Positions 1,215 to 14,127 are shown, counted from the first letter of the stretch. The stretch: 64,000 bases of DNA from a virus (IMGVR_UViG_3300025816_000006:1-64000); one strand, 5' to 3'. Notes: generated by a model from the sequence alone, not told the origin. Made by a program: numbers and translations.

Positions 1215-1279
1215 AATATTATTATCGTCTAAAATGTGTGTTTGTCAATAGTCTATTTATAAGTTTTTTAAGAATAGCT

Positions 1280-1359
1280 GTAAGTCCTTGCCGCCAAAGG
1301 AGTTACGACGCCGGGGGCTGCCCCCGCCCGTCCTAAGTCGTTACCAGCAAACGAGTTAC
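1280..1359. repeat. paired-palindrome element, copy 1
   Basis: GTAAGTCCTT-N7-AAGGAGTTAC, 26-bp GC-rich linker, CTAAGTCGTT-N7-AACGAGTTAC. Confidence 0.95.
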
Positions 1360-1418
1360 GACAGTTAGGAACAAGGCGATAAAAAAGTTTAGAAAATAGA
1401 AAGTTTTAGGGTTGACAA

Positions 1419-1664
1419 TCATTCTTCTTCTCTGTGTATTCTTTCCAATAGTTCTTCTTTAGTTGCTTCCGCTTCGCTTTGCGTCCCACATATAAACATG
1501 GCAGGAACCCACGATCCACCCATCCGACCAAGACACCACGCGCCAGCGTCAAGTTGATCATCTGGACTATTTTTGAACGTCTTAGCGTCAAAAGGAGTTC
1601 TTATCATAACGCTGGATTCTGTTGACATTCTAAACAGTACCGCCCAAACGCTTATCTTTTCCAT
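1419..1664 (-). CDS. small hypothetical protein
   Basis: ORF track; ATG start directly after stop of 1666-1878. Confidence 0.7.
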   Translation of the reverse strand: MEKISVWAVLFRMSTESSVMIRTPFDAKTFKNSPDDQLDAGAWCLGRMGGSWVPAMFICGTQSEAEATKEELLERIHREEE

Positions 1665-1665
1665 T

Positions 1666-1878
1666 TTAGTATCCTAACCAGTTTACAAGTTGTTGTGAGT
1701 CCACTTCGCCATTCTCGTCCAGCATTGCTATGATCTCGTAACCTTCTTCGTCAAAGCTACAGCCTAGGTCGTTATCCACACCCTCAGCAACGTCATCCCA
1801 TCCGTGTGCTTCCAGAATCGTTTTTGCAATCTTTACCGATACGGTTGGGAACTGCTCTGCCCATTCTTGACTATCCAT
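1666..1878 (-). CDS. small acidic hypothetical protein
   Basis: AAGGA SD, CAA-rich leader. Confidence 0.75.
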   Translation of the reverse strand: MDSQEWAEQFPTVSVKIAKTILEAHGWDDVAEGVDNDLGCSFDEEGYEIIAMLDENGEVDSQQLVNWLGY

Positions 1879-1916
1879 TGTATTTCCTTAGTTGTTGTTT
1901 TTGTTGTTGGCGATTG

Positions 1917-2096
1917 TTACGCTTTTCGTTTTTGTGCTTGAACGTTGTCGCTCTTAGCTTTGGTGCGTAGATTCTCTTGCCAGTCGAGGTAATCTTCTGC
2001 ATCTTTATAACTCCAAAAATTTCTAGTTAGTCCAGTGGTCTTGTTTTCTACTTGCCACTGTGTACGCTTGTTGATTGTTACTTTAAAATTTGTCAT
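1917..2096 (-). CDS. small hypothetical protein
   Basis: ATG at 2096 overlapping the end of 2083-2397. Confidence 0.65.
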   Translation of the reverse strand: MTNFKVTINKRTQWQVENKTTGLTRNFWSYKDAEDYLDWQENLRTKAKSDNVQAQKRKA

Positions 2097-2397
2097 CAAA
2101 TTCAATTATCCCTTCTTTTACCATAGCACCAACAAAAGTTTGCTGGTTTGTATGTAGTGCGATTTCGTCGGTGTGTCCATTGTAATCGAACTCGCCGGTA
2201 GCGTCAACCTGTTTCCGGTAGTTCTCTATGTTTTCTTGCTTGATTCTTTTGAGTCTACGATACTCGCTTTCCTGCTCTTGCTTGAACAGGTCATCTTCTT
2301 GAGTGTAGAAAATGGTTTCACCATTACCAACATTCAGACCGTAAATCTCGTCGCGGGTCATTTCAGCATCAAGGCAGATTTCGTTGAAGTTCATCAT
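2083..2397 (-). CDS. hypothetical protein
   Basis: TAAGGA SD; promoter 2434-2461. Confidence 0.8.
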   Translation of the reverse strand: MMNFNEICLDAEMTRDEIYGLNVGNGETIFYTQEDDLFKQEQESEYRRLKRIKQENIENYRKQVDATGEFDYNGHTDEIALHTNQQTFVGAMVKEGIIEFDDKF

Positions 2398-2457
2398 GTT
2401 TTCCTTAGTAGTTGTTGTTTGTTGTATGTCTCTATTATACAGATAGAGTTGTGTTTG

Positions 2458-2601
2458 TCAAGGGGCAATTCGTAAATCGTCAAAGTTTTTTTGGATAAAC
2501 TTACAGATTGCATTCCAGCGTGGTGTGGATACGTCAGAGGGAACTTGCCCACCATATGCCCAGATATTTATCATTCTCATCATGTGTTTGCTTTTTCTCA
2601 T
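2458..2601 (-). CDS. 47-aa hypothetical protein, probably leaderless
   Basis: ATG lies ~7 nt after the -10 box at 2609-2614; MRKSKHMMRMINIWAYGG... Confidence 0.5.
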   Translation of the reverse strand: MRKSKHMMRMINIWAYGGQVPSDVSTPRWNAICKFIQKNFDDLRIAP

Positions 2602-2677
2602 GTTTTCCATTATACTATAGTTATCGGCTTTTGTCAACCCCTATCTATAGTTTATTTCTAATTTTTTATGAATTGTT

Positions 2678-2757
2678 CTAAGTCGTTGTCAGTAAAGGAC
2701 TTACGGTTGCCGGGGGCCGCCCCCGCCGTCCTAAACCCTTGCGGCGTAAGGACTTAG
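2678..2757. repeat. paired-palindrome element, copy 2
   Basis: CTAAGTCGTT-N7-AAGGACTTAC, 26-bp GC linker, CTAAACCCTT-N7-AAGGACTTAG. Confidence 0.95.
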
Positions 2758-2761
2758 GGAA

Positions 2762-2840
2762 AACAAAGAAGCGGGGTGGGACATCTGACTTACCTGCGGC
2801 GATCATTTCGCAGTACAGACCCGTTCGTCCCCGCATCTTC
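2762..2840 (-). terminator. extended GC hairpin with U-rich tail (terminator or 3' structured RNA)
   Basis: GCGGGG/CCCCGC, TCTG/CAGA and CTGCG/CGCAG stems followed by TTCTTTGTTT, downstream of ORF 2858-3052. Confidence 0.5.
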
Positions 2841-2857
2841 GCAACAACACAACAACA

Positions 2858-3052
2858 TTAGAACATAAGGTCAAGATTGTACTTATTACGCGCTAGACGC
2901 ACAATATACGGCACTTGCCCTTGGTGGGCGGTTCGGATCTTGCGACCCTTGCGGTCATACTCGCGGATCTCAGCGCGTTGGTGGCGCTGTGAGTTGGAGG
3001 TGTTGAGAATAACGCGAGCAGTGACAGCAGGTTTTGATTGTAAAGTTTTCAT
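2858..3052 (-). CDS. small basic hypothetical protein
   Basis: ORF track; AC-rich leader like neighbouring genes. Confidence 0.7.
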   Translation of the reverse strand: MKTLQSKPAVTARVILNTSNSQRHQRAEIREYDRKGRKIRTAHQGQVPYIVRLARNKYNLDLMF

Positions 3053-3342
3053 AATGTGAATTTCTCTATCTGTGGTTGTTGAAAAAAAGAGTCTCGGTTT
3101 TTTATCGTGGTTCTCTCCACGCTGCCGCTGTCAGGCCCATTGTGGGCGGCATCGCCTTTAGTTTCCGACTTTCATTCTCAGTTACTCTGCTGGTGTTGCG
3201 GTTTCTAGTAATACACCCATCGGGGCTTTCTAACATGCTACGGGTCTTGGCACTCATTACTGAACTTTTCGTTCTGCCCGTTTTAGTTGTCCATTGGATT
3301 ATATCTCCATTTTAACGTAGGTTGATGCCCTTGTCAAGTCAA

Positions 3343-3522
3343 TTACCACGGTTGTGGCTGATTATCTTGGAACTCGTTGTTGATTTCCATCCAAACATTT
3401 TCCCAGTGGATGCCTTGGGTGTCCTCGTCAGCTTTACGCTGCTCGCAGTATGCCAACAGTGCAGCGTACTCGTCTTGGTCGTACATATCTTCGATCTGAA
3501 GTTGAGTGTTAAAACTGTTCAT
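3343..3522 (-). CDS. 59-aa acidic hypothetical protein (not in track)
   Basis: AAGGA SD; promoter 3550-3577; MNSFNTQLQIEDMYDQDEY... Confidence 0.7.
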   Translation of the reverse strand: MNSFNTQLQIEDMYDQDEYAALLAYCEQRKADEDTQGIHWENVWMEINNEFQDNQPQPW

Positions 3523-3594
3523 CGTTTTTTCCTTTCGTGTTATGTTCTTATTATACAGTAGTTATCGGCGTTGTCAAGCCGAATCTTGACCTTT

Positions 3595-3744
3595 TTAGAA
3601 AAACTTTCGCAAGTTTCTCAAAGCCTTGACAGCATCGCGGATTGCTTCGCGGAACTCCTCGTTGTGGCTTGGGTTGTCGTATGCCACGATCTCGTCGCTG
3701 AGTTTGCCGATGAGAGTGAAGATGAATGATGGTTTAGTTTTCAT
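3595..3744 (-). CDS. 49-aa hypothetical protein (not in track)
   Basis: TAAGGA SD; promoter 3783-3810. Confidence 0.65.
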   Translation of the reverse strand: MKTKPSFIFTLIGKLSDEIVAYDNPSHNEEFREAIRDAVKALRNLRKFF

Positions 3745-3813
3745 AATTTTAATCCTTAAAGTGTTGTGTGTTGTATGCCTCTATTATACATAGTATCGGC
3801 AATTTGTCAAGTC

Positions 3814-3894
3814 CTACTTCTTACTTTCTTCTAAAATAATCATAAATACTTGAACCATTACCAAACTCGCCGCTGTGCAAATTGCAATTTCCAT
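3814..3894 (-). CDS. 26-aa hydrophobic micropeptide
   Basis: TAAGGAG SD; MEIAICTAASLVMVQVFMIILEESKK. Confidence 0.5.
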   Translation of the reverse strand: MEIAICTAASLVMVQVFMIILEESKK

Positions 3895-3984
3895 ATCGTT
3901 TATCTCCTTACTTATATTATCGGGCATGGCGTTGACAAGTCTGGTCACTCTTATCAGGAAAGTTTAGAAAAGACAGGAATAGTC

Positions 3985-4064
3985 ATAAGTCGTTGCTACG
4001 TAAGGACTTACGGCGCCGGGGGGCGGCCCCGCCGGTCCTAAACCCTTACAGGCAAAGGACTTAC
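3985..4064. repeat. paired-palindrome element, copy 3
   Basis: ATAAGTCGTT-N7-AAGGACTTAC, 26-bp GC linker, CTAAACCCTT-N7-AAGGACTTAC. Confidence 0.95.
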
Positions 4065-4065
4065 G

Positions 4066-4293
4066 TCAATCCCAGATCTCGGACAGCATTTCGCCGTCCT
4101 TCTCTACGCGCCGCATCTGGAGTACAGGCACACCGCCATACCCTTCGGGATGACCACCCGAAACGGTATGCGCTCCGCGCTTGCGGAGGTTCGCCCACGC
4201 CTGCTTGGGAGACTTCCCAAACGCAACGCTGCGCGTGGTGTAATAACCGAACCTGCCGAAGCACTCAACGTCTGAAACGATAACTTTGAACAT
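4066..4293 (-). CDS. small hypothetical protein
   Basis: TAGGA SD; lies at the 3' end of the ncRNA cluster. Confidence 0.7.
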   Translation of the reverse strand: MFKVIVSDVECFGRFGYYTTRSVAFGKSPKQAWANLRKRGAHTVSGGHPEGYGGVPVLQMRRVEKDGEMLSEIWD

Positions 4294-4337
4294 AATAAAA
4301 ATCCTAAAAAGTGTTGTGAAATTTGTATTGTAGGGTT

Positions 4338-4465
4338 AGGGGTGTGTGGGTGACGATCCCACGTTACCGGCGATTTGTTACGCTGTTAGGTCAATCCCCG
4401 CTAAAGGATTAGAGTCTACACTCTGTAACAAAAAGTAGCGTCCGGCTTCTTCCACAGAACACCCC
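4338..4465 (-). ncRNA. tRNA-like structured RNA (acceptor stem + T-arm + large internal domain)
   Basis: GGGGTGT/ACACCCC 7-bp stem directly preceded by GTGGG-ATCGTCA-CCCAC; internal GCCGG/CCGGT, TGTTAC/GTAACA, AGAGT/ACTCT and AATCCTT/GGGGATT helices. Confidence 0.6.
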
Positions 4466-4606
4466 GTATTGTATTGTTTGCGATTTTGTGGATTTGTCTG
4501 ATCTTACAGACCGGGACATCTTGCCCGACTCGCGTTGTGTGGTGAGGACTTACTATCCAACCTGCCGTTGAGCATAAGCCGACCTGTTAGTTTGCCTCTT
4601 GTGTTG

Positions 4607-4709
4607 CGACTGGTGAGGGAGTCGAACCCTCGCAGGTGGCTGATCGAGCCTATGCCGCCAATGTTTCCAGAGGGAGTCGAACCCTCGCATCCTGTCCCAA
4701 CTACCAGTC
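4607..4709 (-). ncRNA. tRNA-like RNA with duplicated T-arm
   Basis: GACTGGT/ACCAGTC 7-bp stem directly preceded by GAGGG-TTCGACT-CCCTC; identical hairpin repeated internally; stemless AGTTGGGA D-loop-like segment. Confidence 0.65.
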
Positions 4710-4867
4710 ATTGTATTGTTTGCGGGAATCGAACCCGCTCGGCTGTCAGGCGTAGCTTGCTGCTACGGTTTTCCTCACTTATTACCGTTCCGGTGTGTGG
4801 TGCGTATCTTGAATAGCTCGCCAGCTATGGCCGCGACTTGGGCGGTGCTTTCGGGTCAAGCCCTTGA

Positions 4868-4890
4868 AACTACCAAATTGTAAAAGATCA
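4868..4890 (-). promoter_or_regulatory. boxA-like antitermination signal, copy 1
   Basis: TGATCTTTTACAATTTGGTAGTT; first 16 nt match E. coli rrn boxA region TGCTCTTTAACAATTT at 14/16; ~60 nt after promoter 4960-4988, preceded by hairpins. Confidence 0.7.
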
Positions 4891-5088
4891 AAAAGTCAAG
4901 CTGACCGGCTGAGATTGGCCGTCATTAAGTCGCCTCGCAGACTCACTTAACATGCCCCCATTATACCATAAGTATCGGCATTTGTCAAGGGGTATCATGA
5001 CTAAAATTGTAAAAATTGGGGAAATTTTCTGAGGTCGTCTTTTCCTTTCTTGGCGACACGACTTGCCGCCTCCCCGTGGAGAATGTTG

Positions 5089-5111
5089 AACTACCAAATT
5101 GTAAAAGATCA
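5089..5111 (-). promoter_or_regulatory. boxA-like antitermination signal, copy 2
   Basis: Exact 23-bp repeat of 4868-4890; ~55 nt after promoter 5174-5201, preceded by GAGAG/CTCTC hairpin. Confidence 0.7.
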
Positions 5112-5249
5112 GTGAGAAGACTGATGAGAGCGTCCCAGTTCGTCGGGTGCTTTCCTCTCTGCTTCACTCCCCCATTATAATATATATCGGCTATTTGTCA
5201 AGCCCTAGGCCACTTTAATTCGCAATTATTTAGAAGTTTTATAGTTGAC

Positions 5250-5328
5250 GTAAGTTGTTGCTACGTAAGGACTTACGTCGCGGCGGGCTGCCCCGCCGGT
5301 CCTAAACCCTTACTGCTAAAGGACTTAC
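5250..5328. repeat. paired-palindrome element, copy 4
   Basis: GTAAGTTGTT-N7-AAGGACTTAC, 25-bp GC linker, CTAAACCCTT-N7-AAGGACTTAC. Confidence 0.95.
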
Positions 5329-5352
5329 AACTATTCTTAATAAAATAAGAAA

Positions 5353-5859
5353 TTATACCAAATAGGTCTTGACACCAACTTGACCGGCAAGGTCAACATT
5401 GTGTTGGTCATCATCGTAAAAGTAGACAACATCAAAAAGCTGATTCAAAGTCTGTAGAACCTTTTGCTTTTCTGCTGGAATATCAACTTTTTTATCATCG
5501 GAACCAACACCGAAAACGCGAACAGGTTTAACATCAAAACCGCAAAGCCAATCAACGATTGCATCGGCCACATTATCAGCGCGAGCAGTGAGAACATAAA
5601 CGCTATGTCCTTCGTCGTGAACTTCTTTAGCTAGAGCCATAAGAAAAGTAGGATTAGCGGAACGAATGAACTCAGCAGAACGGAACTCGGAAAAGTCATA
5701 TTCTTCACCGTCTGCTAGAACGTCAGTATTGAACTCAGCAGGAGTCAACTTGCGAATAGGTAAACCGCGAGTACCGCGACCGTTTGGACGACGAACGAGA
5801 ACCTTGCAGTCAGTAGTTGCCAAAGTGTCGTCAAAATCAAATACAAATGCTTTTTTCAT
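5353..5859 (-). CDS. HAD-superfamily phosphatase (PNKP/RNA-repair-like)
   Basis: Motif I FDFDDTL, motif II VLTAR, K, motif IV FYDDD. Confidence 0.85.
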   Translation of the reverse strand: MKKAFVFDFDDTLATTDCKVLVRRPNGRGTRGLPIRKLTPAEFNTDVLADGEEYDFSEFRSAEFIRSANPTFLMALAKEVHDEGHSVYVLTARADNVADAIVDWLCGFDVKPVRVFGVGSDDKKVDIPAEKQKVLQTLNQLFDVVYFYDDDQHNVDLAGQVGVKTYLV

Positions 5860-5914
5860 AATCTTAAATTCCTTAATTGTTGTTTTGTTGTATGCCCTAT
5901 TATAACATAGGGGT

Positions 5915-5931
5915 GTGACACGTTAGGTCAC
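5915..5931. promoter_or_regulatory. second upstream motif GTGAC-N7-GTCA(C)
   Basis: Exact GTGACACGTTAGGTCA at 5915, 6137, 7431, 7628; variant TTGACAAGTCTGGTCAC at 3932; always upstream of minus-strand genes lacking a TTGACA -35. Confidence 0.8.
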
Positions 5932-5940
5932 GAATCAGGA

Positions 5941-6081
5941 CTAATCCTGAGAAACGTGGAATCCACGTTTAACCAAGGACTCGCCGTGAGCGTGGGAAAC
6001 CAACATCAAACCGCCTGCCGAAATGGAAACGATAGTTGCGGTGATGATGCCGAAAGTGTTGTGATTGAATTTGATAGTCAT
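5941..6081 (-). CDS. 46-aa hypothetical protein (not in track)
   Basis: MTIKFNHNTFGIITATIVSISAGG...; downstream of motif 6137. Confidence 0.55.
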   Translation of the reverse strand: MTIKFNHNTFGIITATIVSISAGGLMLVSHAHGESLVKRGFHVSQD

Positions 6082-6155
6082 AATTTTTCTCTTAGTTAGT
6101 GTTGTCTCTTGTATATTACTATTATCGTCTATAGGCGTGACACGTTAGGTCAATT

Positions 6156-6365
6156 CTAACCAGCAATCTCAAAAGATTTTATATCTTTTTGTTGGGTGTG
6201 AATCCATCTTTGAATTTTGTGGTCGTAAAACATAACCCGATCACCATTGATGGAGACATTGTTGGCGGTGGTAGTGTGAACCCAACCACACTTGACACCG
6301 TTTCCGGTTACGGTGATGTTGGCGGTGGAATCAGTGTTGGTGATGAAGTTTTGAAAGTTAGTCAT
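6156..6365 (-). CDS. small hypothetical protein
   Basis: TAAGGT SD; promoter 6405-6433. Confidence 0.75.
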   Translation of the reverse strand: MTNFQNFITNTDSTANITVTGNGVKCGWVHTTTANNVSINGDRVMFYDHKIQRWIHTQQKDIKSFEIAG

Positions 6366-6542
6366 AGTTGTTTACCTTAAAGAGTTGTTGTTTGTTATGT
6401 CCTAAGTATATCATATATATCGTCATTTGTCAACCCCTCTCTACACCTAAAATGGAATTATATAGGAAATAATTTTACCCCCCTACTGGTGGTGTTGTAC
6501 CCCCCGTTGGCGTTACGGGTCAAGATAAGCAAAGACATTACC

Positions 6543-6621
6543 CTAAGTCGTTGCTACATAAGGAGTTACGTCAATCGGGGCTGCCCTGTCCATCCTAAGT
6601 CGTTACTACCAAAGGACTTAT
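6543..6621. repeat. paired-palindrome element, copy 5
   Basis: CTAAGTCGTT-N7-AAGGAGTTAC, 25-bp linker, CTAAGTCGTT-N7-AAGGACTTAT. Confidence 0.95.
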
Positions 6622-6666
6622 AACTATTCTGAGAAAATTGCAAAAATGTCTATTGACACGTCATAA

Positions 6667-6786
6667 TTAACTCCAGTGTAAAAGCATATAAACTATTGAC
6701 ATTATACCAAACATAATGGTAATAACGCAGATCCCCATCATAAATAAATCGAACAGGGCAGAACAAAGTTTTCCAAAGTTTTCCAT
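6667..6786 (-). CDS. 39-aa membrane micropeptide (not in track)
   Basis: GGAG SD; MENFGKLCSALFDLFMMGICVITIMFGIMSIVYMLLHWS. Confidence 0.55.
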   Translation of the reverse strand: MENFGKLCSALFDLFMMGICVITIMFGIMSIVYMLLHWS

Positions 6787-6789
6787 TTC

Positions 6790-6882
6790 TTACTCCACGG
6801 ACGCACAAGCATCACAAGTTGGCTGGACAACATCGTTGCGACGATTGGAGCAGTCGCAACCACAAATTACACAAATTTTCAT
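6790..6882 (-). CDS. 30-aa Cys-rich (Zn-ribbon-like) peptide (not in track)
   Basis: MKICVICGCDC...TCDACASVE, two CxxC pairs; TAGGA SD. Confidence 0.55.
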   Translation of the reverse strand: MKICVICGCDCSNRRNDVVQPTCDACASVE

Positions 6883-6915
6883 AATAGTTGTTTCCTAGTT
6901 GGAAGTTGTTAAGTT

Positions 6916-7005
6916 GTTGGGTCGCAGTTTTGATTACCTAGTATAACTTGCGGTTAAATTCCTAGAACCTGATTTATTTATATTCGGCAGGATATCCGAG
7001 TAGAA
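6916..7005. ncRNA. conserved pseudoknot + hairpin element, copy A
   Basis: Homologous to 8298-8390 with compensatory base changes in two helices. Confidence 0.65.
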
Positions 7006-7009
7006 CGCA

Positions 7010-7174
7010 CTACTTGGTGCGTTTGAATGGGCTATGCCCGTATTTTGCTACATAAGCAGCAAAGGCAGCAGCTTCACGCTGCTTACGATCAGCACGTTGT
7101 GCTGTCGTTTCAGGAGCAACCGGCTTGCGGTTTGCAACTGAATCCCAATAGTAGTTATTAGTTTTATAAGTCAT
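7010..7174 (-). CDS. small hypothetical protein (start MTYKTN)
   Basis: AAGGA SD before ATG 7174. Confidence 0.65.
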   Translation of the reverse strand: MTYKTNNYYWDSVANRKPVAPETTAQRADRKQREAAAFAAYVAKYGHSPFKRTK

Positions 7175-7220
7175 AAGTTTTGATCCTTTCAAGATCGGGT
7201 AAAAAATAGTAATTGTGCGA

Positions 7221-7373
7221 TCACTCGCAACCGAAGCGACCATTTACGGTCACTTGGTCGGCGGTGGGTTGGTGTGAACCTTCGCGGCGAACCTCAACGC
7301 GACCCTCTCGCATTGCAGCTTGGAACTGCTCAAGAGTCATGTTTTCAGTTTCTTTGGCGGTTAAAGTTTTCAT
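7221..7373 (-). CDS. 50-aa hypothetical protein (not in track)
   Basis: TAGGA SD; downstream of motif 7431. Confidence 0.6.
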   Translation of the reverse strand: MKTLTAKETENMTLEQFQAAMREGRVEVRREGSHQPTADQVTVNGRFGCE

Positions 7374-7646
7374 AGTTAGTTTTCCTAAAGGAGTTTTGAA
7401 TTTGTTATATAAGTAGTATCGTCTATGGTCGTGACACGTTAGGTCACTACTTTCGGGAATCTTCCAAGATTTTTAAAACTTCATCGGTTTGCTTGTTGGA
7501 CAATTTAAGGTTCAGAACCGCAAGGGTTTCGACAAATGCCGAGTTGATTTTGCGGGCTACAATTTTGTGGGCGATTGTTTTGCTGTTCATTGTTGTTTCT
7601 TTCATATTAGTATTATCGTCTAAGGGTGTGACACGTTAGGTCAATG

Positions 7647-7847
7647 TTAGATATAATTCCAGTGGAATTTGGAAACTTTATATTCTGCAAAATCGCGGTT
7701 GACGATATTCCAAACGATATTATTAACGCTGTTGTATGCTCCATCGCTGTTGATAACATACGTTTTATTGTAACGCTTACCATTAGCTAATGTCACGAAG
7801 ATTGATACGTTTTCTTTAATCATTGTTTTACTGTTGTTGTTTGTCAT
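7647..7847 (-). CDS. small hypothetical protein
   Basis: Promoter 7854-7881; start uncertain (7847 leaderless, or 7823). Confidence 0.6.
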   Translation of the reverse strand: MTNNNSKTMIKENVSIFVTLANGKRYNKTYVINSDGAYNSVNNIVWNIVNRDFAEYKVSKFHWNYI

Positions 7848-7991
7848 GCTTCTATTATACATACATCGGCAGATTTGTCAACCCCTCTGTACCCTAATTC
7901 CGAAAGTTTTTAAGAAATAATCTTACCCCCCCTGTCGGCGGTTGCATACCCCCCATTGGCGCTACGGGTCAGGATACGCTAAGACATTGAC

Positions 7992-8070
7992 GTAACCTGT
8001 TGCTACATAAGGACTTACGTCGCCCGCCGCTGCCCCGTCCGTCCTAAGTCGTTACTACCAAAGGACTTAC
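7992..8070. repeat. paired-palindrome element, copy 6
   Basis: GTAACCTGTT-N7-AAGGACTTAC, 25-bp linker, CTAAGTCGTT-N7-AAGGACTTAC. Confidence 0.95.
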
Positions 8071-8297: not shown

Positions 8298-8390
8298 GTT
8301 GGGTTCGCAGTTTAGATTATCGGGTACAACTTGCGGTTAAACTATCCGAACCTAATTTATTTAAAGTGGGTAGGACATCCCACTTGACAG
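8298..8390. ncRNA. conserved pseudoknot + hairpin element, copy B
   Basis: Homologous to 6916-7005 with covariation. Confidence 0.65.
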
Positions 8391-10134: not shown

Positions 10135-10761
10135 ATGAACAAGAAAATAAAAACAAAAACCCTAATATCTGTGGGTGTTCAGAAAACAGAGACCAAGGAT
10201 GTCGAAATAGTATTTGACGCTCTTAGAAAACTTCCAGAGCCAGAAAAATCTGCAATACCAGTAGGTCAAAATTTTTTCTACCAAATAAAACAAACTAAAG
10301 ACGAAAGGCTTAATACATACTGTGAGTCTGGTCTTGGTGAATTTTACAAAAAACGCAATAAATTCTTTTTTAAAAGAGAATATGTATTTTGGGTAGAAAA
10401 AGACGACACATCATACAGACCAAGAAACGGAACGCCACCAGTTCTAAACGACCTTGAAGGTCATAACTTTATTCTTTTGAAATATCTGCCAGAAAATTAC
10501 AAAAATATTCTCGTAAGCAAAAATAGTGTACTTTGTTCCACAGAGCCGTTTACTCCAACGCCAGTAGAACTACAAGATAACACTCTCTTAGGCAAGCTTA
10601 ATAATATTATACAGTCTATAGATCAAAATGAATTATGGTCTATACTCTTACAAAATAATAAAAAGCCCGTTGAAGGAAGCATTAAGTACAACAAGAAAGA
10701 TAAATGCTTTGAAGGATACGACGGAAAACAATGGCGCGCACTAATGTGGGGTGAAGAATGA
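10135..10761 (+). CDS. hypothetical protein
   Basis: 208-aa ORF, ATGA-coupled to next gene. Confidence 0.8.
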   Translation: MNKKIKTKTLISVGVQKTETKDVEIVFDALRKLPEPEKSAIPVGQNFFYQIKQTKDERLNTYCESGLGEFYKKRNKFFFKREYVFWVEKDDTSYRPRNGTPPVLNDLEGHNFILLKYLPENYKNILVSKNSVLCSTEPFTPTPVELQDNTLLGKLNNIIQSIDQNELWSILLQNNKKPVEGSIKYNKKDKCFEGYDGKQWRALMWGEE

Positions 10762-11270
10762 AGATACCCCCTAACATGATAGAAGATGAAGTACTAAGAG
10801 TTATAGAAAAGGTTATCAATAAGACTGCTGCTAAATATACCTTTTATGGATATACAGTAGATGACATAAAACAAGAGTCTTTCATTATATGTATAGATGC
10901 GCTCCAACGATATGATGGTAAACGCCCGTTGGAAAACTTCCTCAGTGTAAATCTATCTAATCGTCTTAAAAATTTCATTCGTGACAATCACTTCATCTCA
11001 AACTCGGATGATGAACGAATAAAAGTCTTACAACCGGCGCAACTGGATTATGAAGAAACTCTTTTGGATGAAAACGAAAAATATGCAGTAGACGAAGAAC
11101 ATTTTGATTATTTATACATTTCCACGAACATTGATAGGCTTCTTCCGGCGTCAATGCGTATGGATTACCTCAAGATGATTGCAGGAGTCTACCTTCCCAA
11201 AGCAAGAAAAGAAGAAATATCTAAAAGAATATTAGAAATAATGGAGGACTGTGGCTATGAAGAAAGGTAG
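10758..11270 (+). CDS. phage sigma-factor-like protein (sigma70 region 2)
   Basis: DDIKQESFIICIDALQRYDGKRPLENFL...NRLKNFIRD resembles sigma70_r2. Confidence 0.7.
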   Translation: MKIPPNMIEDEVLRVIEKVINKTAAKYTFYGYTVDDIKQESFIICIDALQRYDGKRPLENFLSVNLSNRLKNFIRDNHFISNSDDERIKVLQPAQLDYEETLLDENEKYAVDEEHFDYLYISTNIDRLLPASMRMDYLKMIAGVYLPKARKEEISKRILEIMEDCGYEER

Positions 11271-12042
11271 GATCTCTAAAGAAGAAGAGGCGATCATAGA
11301 AAAGAGCATAGGTACTATGTCCTACGAAGATATAGCGGACAAGCTTGACAGAGACCCTGAGAGCGTCGAGAAGTTTATTAAGCGTAAGTTCAATGTTGGT
11401 GCATCTAAAGAAGAGAAAGCGGCTTTTGAGCTTGACCAGAGACCCTACTGGGTTGAAGTAAAACAGCAGTTTACAGAGGACGAACTGAAGCTTTTTAGAT
11501 ATCACTGGGCTAGAATCATTTCACAGTTTCGTGATGACGTTATTCCTACAGAAGAACTACAGGTTGTTGACCTCATCAAGTTAGAGCTACTAATGAACAG
11601 GTCACTCAAGCAGAATAAAGATAACATAGAGCAGATCTCTACGCTAGAGGGTCTAATACAAGCAGAGAGGGCGCGCGACCCAGATCAGCAAGATGTAGAC
11701 ATGGTGTTTAACATGGAGCGTCAGGCGGCTTCTCTGAAGGCTTCACAGGAATCTTTAAACAAAGACTATCGTGAACTCCAAACAAAGAAAAACTCGATGC
11801 TCAAGGAAATGAAGGCAACAAGAGAGCAAAGAGTCAAGAGACTAGAAGACAGCAAACAGAGTCTTGTTGGATGGATAGCATACCTTATGGGTAATCCAGA
11901 TGTAACAAGTCAATACGGAATAGAAATGGAAAAGATGCGACTAGCCATGAAAAAAGAAAAAGAGAGACTGGGAGCATTCCACAAATTTACAGATGGACAG
12001 GTAGACCAACCCTTTTTAAACTCGGACACTATCAAGGACTAA
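11257..12042 (+). CDS. HTH/coiled-coil protein, possible terminase small subunit
   Basis: N-terminal SYEDIADKLDRDPESV HTH-like segment, long coiled coil; upstream of terL. Confidence 0.45.
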   Translation: MKKGRISKEEEAIIEKSIGTMSYEDIADKLDRDPESVEKFIKRKFNVGASKEEKAAFELDQRPYWVEVKQQFTEDELKLFRYHWARIISQFRDDVIPTEELQVVDLIKLELLMNRSLKQNKDNIEQISTLEGLIQAERARDPDQQDVDMVFNMERQAASLKASQESLNKDYRELQTKKNSMLKEMKATREQRVKRLEDSKQSLVGWIAYLMGNPDVTSQYGIEMEKMRLAMKKEKERLGAFHKFTDGQVDQPFLNSDTIKD

Positions 12043-13123: not shown

Positions 13124-13368
13124 AGATATACAAAGTACACATGGTGTTAACACTCGTTATATCCAGATTAAAAGAATATAATTTAGATGATTACAATAGT
13201 TCTACCCCTATAATATTTGTTGAAGCGAAAGACCCAGACGACGCATGTTACAAAGCTATGCACAAGCTTGCTATTAAGATACTAAAGTCAGATCACTCTA
13301 TAGAGACTTTGAATTTTATAAAAGATATTTTCAACGATATAAGAATTATTAAGATAGAGATACCATGA
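13120..13368 (+). CDS. hypothetical protein
   Basis: ATGA overlaps on both sides. Confidence 0.75.
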   Translation: MKIYKVHMVLTLVISRLKEYNLDDYNSSTPIIFVEAKDPDDACYKAMHKLAIKILKSDHSIETLNFIKDIFNDIRIIKIEIP

Positions 13369-13631
13369 GAAGAGACTACAACGATCCGGTATACAAACGC
13401 TGGAGAATAAGCGTCTACAAAAGAGACGACTTTACATGCCAGATGCCCGGATGTTCTTATAAAAAGTATCTAAACGCACACCATATACAAAAATGGGCCA
13501 GTGCCTCTACACTGAGGTTTGATGTTGATAATGGAATTACACTTTGTAAAAACTGCCACAAAAAGGTTACAGGTAGTGAACAACACTATCAAGGTTTATT
13601 TCAACAAATAGTGAGAAAGAATAATGGCTAA
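13365..13631 (+). CDS. HNH endonuclease
   Basis: RDxxxC...C...LNAHHI...NGITLCKNCH. Confidence 0.9.
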   Translation: MRRDYNDPVYKRWRISVYKRDDFTCQMPGCSYKKYLNAHHIQKWASASTLRFDVDNGITLCKNCHKKVTGSEQHYQGLFQQIVRKNNG

Positions 13632-14127
13632 ATATAAGACTGCCCCCAGTTATACTGTGATTCGAGACACAAGAGAGCAGCAGGGTTATTTTTTCAAAAA
13701 GTTTAACACATGCAACGGGACGGTCCAGAGAAAACTAGAGACTGGCGACTATTCTATCTTAGGTATGGAAGATAAGGTTTGCATAGAAAGAAAAGCTAGC
13801 GTCTCAGAAATAGCGCTTAACTTAGGAAAAGGAAAGTATGCCTTCTACAACGAAGTAGAAAGAATGAGGGAATATGAACATAAATTTATAGTATGTGAGT
13901 TCTCTATGGAGGATGTAATGAAATTTCCAGAGGGCGCAAAGATACCCAAAGAACTAAAAGGTAAAGTAAAAATAACGGGAAAGTATATACTAAGATGTTT
14001 AATGGAGTTTGCCGTATTTAACGATGTACACGTTGTGTTTGCCGGTAGCGAAAGGGGTGCATTTGATTTAATCAGCAGTTTACTAAAAAGGATTAATGAA
14101 AAATACACAATAGGGCGCAAGTCATGA
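13624..14127 (+). CDS. ERCC4-type nuclease
   Basis: DTREQ...LETGDYS...IERK motif. Confidence 0.85.
   Translation: MAKYKTAPSYTVIRDTREQQGYFFKKFNTCNGTVQRKLETGDYSILGMEDKVCIERKASVSEIALNLGKGKYAFYNEVERMREYEHKFIVCEFSMEDVMKFPEGAKIPKELKGKVKITGKYILRCLMEFAVFNDVHVVFAGSERGAFDLISSLLKRINEKYTIGRKS

Follow-up and report, generated by a model that had tools for sequence, protein, structure and literature searches.

A double-palindrome module at early promoters of a large uncultured phage family, with counterparts on the chromosome of a planctomycete

The first 64 kb of the viral record IMGVR_UViG_3300025816_000006 (G000; 162,690 bp, 98% complete), in the following called the window, contain six copies of an element of about 80 bp, in which two imperfect palindromes flank a GC-rich core and which is located between small early genes. 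The same double-palindrome module is present in more than 130 viral loci and is found again in front of promoters in the chromosome of a planctomycete. Our reading, which we hold with about even confidence, is that the module is a dock for a putative protein upstream of promoters, bounding early transcription units and doubling as a recombination joint. It would act as a double-stranded docking site with four half-sites of about 15 bp, arranged in two inverted pairs with fixed 7-bp spacers and the GC-rich core. Strong host-type (sigma70) promoters follow the module, which would thus mark the border between successive early transcription units. The putative protein, from host or phage and possibly a dimer of dimers, would bind the module and either tune or insulate the downstream early promoter or stop read-through from upstream. 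Because 10–16 similar copies lie in direct orientation, homologous recombination among them could delete, insert and swap promoter-gene cassettes.

Each element consists of two imperfect 9+7+9 palindromes around a GC-rich stretch of 27–28 bp; the paired palindromes start 52–53 bp apart, and the orientation is the same in all copies. In the window, the palindromes start at 1281/1334, 2679/2732, 3986/4039, 5251/5303, 6544/6596 and 7993/8045. The pattern scan thereby bore out the original prediction, made from the window alone, of six paired palindromes with this distance and a single orientation, and the 7-bp spacers are, as it had stated, identical between copies 3 and 4 and between copies 5 and 6. 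The number six applies to the window; the genome has ten, as the array continues beyond the record ends, with four further elements at the other end (157888, 159150, 160111 and 161635). Over the whole genome, a degenerate pattern matched at 10 forward and 7 reverse positions, its reversed control at none. The gaps between elements are 1262, 961, 1524, 2336, 1398, 1307, 1265, 1293 and 1449 bp (the gap of 2336 bp spans the record ends, if the map is circular), and the copies are interspersed with genes over about 13 kb. A period of about 1.3–1.45 kb had been proposed, but the gaps, 961–2336 bp here and from 0.2 to beyond 2 kb across some 135 related loci, reflect cassette size instead. The linker is longer than the 25–26 bp first given; it is indeed GC-rich, and across the family the core folds no better than shuffled sequences (z-score about 0). 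The whole-genome scan detected no copy in the late region, as expected, and in the rest of the genome the half-site 9-mers occur at chance level only. Half-sites as promoters for a phage sigma factor were rejected because of this chance-level occurrence outside the array. The elements of the window and the promoters that follow them are:

Element 1, 1281..1358, minus strand: palindromes 1281-1305 and 1334-1358 with GC-rich core; after the stop of the open reading frame (ORF) 1419-1664 (minus strand) and 32 bp upstream of the minus-strand promoter 1248-1221.
Promoter after element 1, 1221..1248, minus strand: sigma70-type early promoter, 11 of 12 consensus bases.
Element 2, 2679..2756, minus strand: palindromes 2679-2703 and 2732-2756; promoter 2637-2609 located 41 bp downstream.
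Promoter after element 2, 2609..2637, minus strand: consensus sigma70-type early promoter, 12 of 12.
Element 3, 3986..4063, minus strand: palindromes 3986-4010 and 4039-4063; stop codon of ORF 4066-4293 (minus strand) 2 nt away; right-hand half of the hybrid element in the relative L256.
Element 4, 5251..5327, minus strand: palindromes 5251-5275 and 5303-5327; 25 nt past the stop of a HAD-like gene (5353-5859, minus strand); promoter 5201-5174 located 49 bp downstream; partner in the hybrids of the relatives L256 and L261.
Promoter after element 4, 5174..5201, minus strand: consensus sigma70-type early promoter, 12 of 12.
Element 5, 6544..6620, minus strand: palindromes 6544-6568 and 6596-6620; promoter 6433-6405 located 110 bp downstream; left-hand half of the L261 hybrid element.
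Promoter after element 5, 6405..6433, minus strand: sigma70-type early promoter, 11 of 12.
Element 6, 7993..8069, minus strand: palindromes 7993-8017 (degenerate) and 8045-8069; core without self-complementarity, as read from the sequence; promoter 7881-7854 located 111 bp downstream.
Promoter after element 6, 7854..7881, minus strand: consensus sigma70-type early promoter, 12 of 12.

The elements had been thought to be placed regardless of the genes between them, but every element follows a gene end, and five of the six window copies have a sigma70-type promoter 32, 41, 49, 110 or 111 bp downstream. The minus strand carries 13 perfect 12-of-12 sigma70 promoters in 10 kb and no canonical terminators. 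Across the family, 69 of 100 composite elements have a sigma70-type promoter within 300 nt, and motifs are enriched on the downstream flank only, namely -10 regions and in some loci also reverse-complemented sigma54 boxes. The distances between composite and promoter cluster near 31, 41, 51 and 61 bp; this 10-bp ladder is only suggestive, because copies within one genome are related.

The module is widespread in phages from marine and freshwater samples. One palindrome variant with 18 fixed bases has matches in at least 119 viral contigs, and a relaxed scan of about 135 loci yielded 674 distinct palindromes with start-to-start spacings within pairs of 53 bp (145 cases), 52 bp (50) and 42 bp (12). 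A gene block from sigma factor to terminase is common to at least 44 loci. All 100 composites in 33 oriented loci are located on the early side of the sigma-like gene, and in three complete genomes the copies are confined to the 8–17 kb adjoining the sigma-factor gene. The polarity of the elements relative to early transcription is most often the same across the family. In a collection of cultured phages no match to the element, the 7-kb array or the sigma-like protein was found, and literature searches by the letters of the motif and on sigma54 promoters in phage genomes yielded nothing relevant.

Elements located after gene ends, on an early strand lacking canonical terminators, have the position of a terminator. 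The module might therefore work as RNA, whether to terminate, process or stabilise mRNA or as a small RNA with three hairpins. In this genome one palindrome type pairs with G-U on the gene-sense strand only, three of the four copies tested have sense-strand folding energies far below those of shuffles (z-scores of -3.6 and -4.0 for two of them), and chance occurrences of the palindrome in Firmicutes belong to ordinary terminators. Yet the arms behave as if pairing was not selected. Symmetric arms occur in only 3 palindromes where 45 are expected (the minimum in 2000 shuffles was 26), and arms of the same palindrome have 2.29 mismatches compared to 2.03 with shuffled partners, a value that none of 1000 shuffles reaches. 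Variant bases at arm positions 4–7 are almost never compensated on the other arm, and long-range pairing is not better (2.58 mismatches for outer and 1.55 for inner arms); pairing is perfect neither locally nor over long range. The strand permitting G-U pairing flips between relatives, the core folds like shuffles and one copy folds worse than them, no U-tract after the element could be read from the sequence, and neither Rfam nor ARAGORN gave a match for the element. The module is thus not a selected hairpin: an RNA or single-strand hairpin was rejected, since covariation is lacking and the arms pair worse than chance, and we regard a function as RNA as very improbable.

The pattern of conservation is instead the one expected of a duplex site with non-equivalent protein contacts, since the half-sites vary by position: in sense orientation the four positions prefer ACCC, GTCC, GTCC and GTCG. 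The conserved half-site, Y-AAGGACTTA-CGnCnA, is about 15 bp long and reaches outward into the flank. As the distance of 52–53 bp corresponds to five helical turns, both palindromes of a pair face the same side of the helix. Each arm supplies AANNNNTTA of the IHF consensus WATCAANNNNTTR, with 38 matches compared to 11 in shuffles; the fit is weak and partial, with the T of WATC disfavoured (5–9%) and the four "N" positions themselves 46–92% conserved. The stoperators of mycobacteriophage L5, a temperate phage, are single asymmetric repressor sites of 13 bp. The module may be comparable to them in that many sites of protein-binding type run in one orientation through transcription units; it differs in that its sites are palindrome pairs in front of promoters, and neither a repressor nor an integrase was identified.

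Near-identical relatives among marine metagenome contigs show hybrid elements at sites of cassette loss or movement. In L256, a single hybrid element replaces element 4, the 1.26-kb cassette and element 3 of this genome, and the switch point is located inside the element, in a stretch that is near-identical in both parents and spans the second palindrome. In L261, the left half of element 5 is joined to the right half of element 4; the junction is again inside the element, and the cassette with the HAD hydrolase has moved elsewhere. In a third relative, L254, a replacement starts exactly at the element end. Of 50 synteny breakpoints, 10 lie in elements (within 15 bp) compared to 6.9% expected, an approximately three-fold enrichment (p=0.002). 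The order of gene families is mosaic across six early regions, in which units often recur directly after an element. The earlier proposal of cassette shuffling is therefore right as to the outcome, seen in the hybrids and the breakpoint enrichment, but its mechanism is not supported, because no recombinase was found in the family genomes searched, the arms have no attC-like complementarity and most breakpoints are elsewhere.

Arms of 9–13 bp around a 7-bp spacer fit the core sites of tyrosine recombinases. The elements might accordingly be core sites for a host Xer-like or an integron-like site-specific recombinase, which would excise and insert the cassettes as circles. Integron attC sites and dif/pdif sites share with the module the two inverted arm pairs, spacers of 6–8 bp and cassettes of about 1 kb in one orientation; neighbouring copies share spacers, and junctions of cassette deletions and moves lie inside elements. 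We consider such recombination sites very unlikely all the same. The lack of a recombinase gene noted for the window extends to whole genomes: the tyrosine recombinase family (PF00589) is absent from this genome and five relatives (G002, G005, G006, G008 and G009), three of the six being complete and one 98% complete. Serine recombinase (PF00239), ParB (PF02195) and Y1 transposase (PF01797) are absent from three complete or near-complete genomes. Outer as well as inner arms (R and L boxes) lack the complementarity needed for attC folding, the sequence resembles neither dif nor the integron GTTRRRY core, and the cassettes bring their own promoters. A crossover in a near-identity stretch of both parent elements, as in L256, is what homology-driven exchange would produce. 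Because no dedicated recombinase was found in the family genomes, homology-driven exchange at repeated regulatory DNA appears the likeliest route and best explains the hybrids.

A comparable situation has been described for the promoter-early stem-loops (PeSLs) of T4-type phages, repeated composite motifs between small early genes (PMC2839356, PMC4122927), for which exchange by homology at the repeats has been proposed (PMC4122927). Like PeSLs, the module occurs in a plastic region, among small early genes of unknown function; near-consensus sigma70 promoters follow directly, and close relatives differ by indels and replacements with exchange at the repeat. Unlike the stem-loop of PeSLs, the upstream half of the module is a rigid stretch of about 80 bp with four half-sites, a GC-rich core and no arm covariation, and conservation of the arm sequence extends through a large and diverse family of phages to a bacterial chromosome.

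The original prediction had also considered a physical ruler or a stop signal for DNA entry, looping, partition or replication. Copies are indeed restricted to one terminal-looking early block and have a single orientation. The spacing is irregular in this genome and in the family, which refutes the ruler; the search for a ParB-like gene, made in the three complete or near-complete genomes, was negative, and the module is also dispersed before promoters in a bacterial chromosome. We regard this explanation as extremely unlikely. The injection-stop region of phage T5 differs: there the repeats form one untranslated block in the terminal repeat, and its DnaA boxes are ordered (10.1101/866236), whereas the module copies alternate with genes.

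Some modules have a second companion. Related loci with a total of 1.3 Mb contain 145 boxes of the sigma54 type (TGGCAC-N5-TTGCW with at most one mismatch); 84 are within 60 bp of a palindrome, usually at 13–14 bp and with the box facing the palindrome. In locus L032 a unit of sigma70 promoter, genes, module and antisense sigma54 box is repeated seven times. In our genome, the only perfect match to the box consensus (TGGCACAGTATTTGCA, G000:C1:159120-159135, plus strand) is located 14 bp before the element at 159150 and is directed antisense to the early genes. Sigma54 enhancers typically have two dyad sites on the same face of the helix. It might thus be possible that a host enhancer-binding ATPase on the phased palindromes activates the adjoining boxes, giving transcripts antisense to early genes, or small RNAs, later in infection; some boxes in the complete genome G009 do face away from the module, as with a classical upstream enhancer. 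Promoters of the -24/-12 type within looping distance, as sigma54 enhancers have, are common in other relatives but not here or in the complete genome G006. Only one of the ten modules here and none of the nine in G006 have a box within 90 bp, and in G009 the boxes are 37–50 bp from the modules; since one copy has a box here, none in G006, and the geometry in G009 is different, the boxes are a frequent but dispensable companion of the module. Furthermore, the aligned host copies described below bear sigma70 and not sigma54 promoters, the commonest geometry puts the module downstream of the presumed start site, and face-to-face box pairs in some loci are hard to interpret as promoters. Searches for an activator ATPase in 22 family records and for a sigma54 DNA-binding domain in five were negative. 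Overall, a sigma54 enhancer is a quite unlikely explanation.

Among bacterial genome assemblies, matches to the motif are mostly in Planctomycetota bins, with about 17 matches in the collection estimated to arise by chance. Matches in Listeria, Erysipelothrix, Domibacillus, Clostridia and Vibrio were set aside as ordinary terminator hairpins or as being at chance level. The Planctomycetia assembly G024 has 73 matches spread over the chromosome compared to 2 for the control; the 45 matches listed for its main contig group into 35 loci, so the assembly has at least 35. All nine aligned copies consist of a palindrome, about 65 nt, a second palindrome, about 35 nt and TTGACA-N17-TATAAT, and in part of them the stretch between the palindromes differs. 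In a second context, a single palindrome adjoins a conserved stretch, CATCAACAGTCAACAAACTGCACC ... GGTGCAATAAG (L339:4854, L342:4086, L344:4582, L338:2310 and L341:1945); at three of these five sites it is located 0.7–1.1 kb downstream of a unit of double palindrome and promoter, so that the host units, too, resemble cassettes of about 1 kb. In a scan across Planctomycetota genomes, G024 gave 16 matches and a second planctomycete, G110, gave 6 (control 0 in both); most of 151 other Planctomycetota were at control level, thus the expansion is specific to a few lineages.

Planctomycetes are probably the hosts of this phage family, to judge from the chromosomal copies, DUF1501 genes and CRISPR spacers together. 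The DUF1501 family is expanded in planctomycetes. The phage carries two full-length tandem DUF1501 genes outside the window (G000:C1:114113-116493, minus strand), the relatives G002, G005 and G013 have one to three such proteins each, and one of the host copies in G024 precedes a DUF1501 gene. G024 also has a type I-E-like CRISPR array (L345:3502-7192) of 60 spacers, of which about five contain half-sites of the element; one of them reads through CCG-TAAGTCGTT-GCTGGGT-AAGCA. The best match of these spacers to the family loci compared is 22 of 33 bases, and none matches over the full length.

The distribution in host chromosomes leads to a different explanation: a small non-autonomous mobile element, made up of the module alone or of module and promoter, would be moved in trans by a host transposase and later co-opted. 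It would resemble miniature inverted-repeat transposable elements, REP/BIME or Correia elements or derivatives of IS200/IS605 ends, and would have spread in planctomycete chromosomes and phages. Correia elements of Neisseria and REP/BIME (RIP) elements of enterobacteria are short dispersed intergenic inverted-repeat elements. With these the module shares inverted repeats, possible adjoining promoters or protein-binding sites and a lineage-specific expansion (here in G024 and G110), and the many dispersed intergenic imperfect palindromes in the G024 chromosome are a feature of the REP/RAYT type. HUH transposases, such as those of IS608 and REP/RAYT, recognise imperfect hairpins, and the palindromes of the module are almost never perfect. 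G024 has 41 matches to Y1 HUH transposases, with 7 of the 35 motif loci within 3.5 kb of one compared to 1.2 expected, and the phage copies all have one orientation. Several findings speak against such an element. In G024, the one multi-copy Y1 element examined (751 bp) was rejected as a partner of the palindromes, because its ends are unrelated to them, and Y1, DDE-independent serine and tyrosine recombinases were not found in the phage genomes. In the host copies the centres differ but palindromes and promoter are conserved, suggesting functional selection and not recent copying. Unlike Correia and REP/BIME elements, the module forms arrays in one orientation in phage early regions, where its placement is highly regular, and it fits the IHF consensus weakly. 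On balance, we think a mobile origin of this kind unlikely. A further idea, in our view also unlikely and no more so than the mobile element, is that planctomycete chromosomes and the large phages of these bacteria exchange module and promoter together, as a portable regulatory cassette. A conserved regulator or a strand-specific HUH-type enzyme would then read the imperfect palindromes, control the promoters and catalyse or guide the movement of the cassettes. If true, this would be an integron-like gene shuffling without an integrase, common to virus and host.

Several observations weigh against the module being a promoter-upstream docking site and recombination joint. Most synteny breakpoints are not at elements, and many of these are at repeated promoter modules. 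The distance ladder builds partly on related copies from the same genome, and periods close to 10 bp score almost equally. No recognisable promoter is located within 300 nt of 31 of the 100 composites, many consensus early promoters of the window are without any element, and promoters with a perfect consensus should need no activator. The searches yielded no binding protein for the module: HU/IHF-family proteins were not found in five family genomes, ParB not in the three complete or near-complete ones and enhancer-binding proteins not in 22 family records. Finally, a strong expansion in one planctomycete genome together with absence from most others looks more like a mobile repeat than like a conserved regulon.

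The genes of the array block are all small minus-strand ORFs, nearly all without family matches; homologues of L5 gp82 and gp88 are encoded inside the array. Between 10 and 16.7 kb the opposite strand begins with a protein containing sigma70 region 2, followed by a helix-turn-helix protein and a GDP-mannose dehydratase and then by an HNH nuclease, an ERCC4 nuclease, a ClpP protease and the large terminase. The first two genes (10758-12042, plus strand) encode a 170-amino-acid protein with sigma70 region 2 only and a 263-amino-acid protein with an N-terminal region-4-like helix-turn-helix domain. This pair resembles a split or T4 gp55-like late sigma system, and both genes are found in more than 40 related loci. 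The large terminase has only about 27% identity to those of Bacillus siphoviruses, and the phage is not evidently T4-like. In addition to the HNH and ERCC4 nucleases (13365-14127, plus strand), an endonuclease VII-like protein is encoded (G000:C1:154952-155503, plus strand); speculatively, structure-specific nucleases might account for the avoidance of perfect palindromes.

Three side observations concern non-coding sequences and RNA genes. Duplicated non-coding stretches lie beside elements 5 and 6, with 81% identity between 6478-6620 and 7927-8069, a pair with ACCCCCC runs between element and promoter, and 77% between 6919-7004 and 8302-8387. Behind two consensus promoters on the minus strand (4320-5201) there are about 600 nt without a convincing ORF. 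This stretch contains several T-arm-like GGTTCGA hairpins, in which ARAGORN found no tRNA and Rfam only a sub-threshold chance match; a 73-nt piece of it has 96% identity in the relative L216, and the cassette that holds it is wholly missing from L256. Outside the window, ARAGORN detected a permuted transfer-messenger RNA with the tag ADESLALAA (G000:C1:138988-139302, minus strand), which adjoins a tRNA-Glu gene, and four more tRNA genes are located at 147–153 kb.

The module gives a sequence-defined handle on how early host-takeover genes are organised and reshuffled in a large uncultured phage family, and it is a practical marker for this family and its early regions in metagenomes. It also ties the promoter architecture of these phages to a chromosomal repeat of planctomycetes, a phylum in which, to our knowledge, the control of transcription is almost unstudied. 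The protein that binds the module, if found, would be a candidate for a global regulator or insulator that serves host and virus alike.

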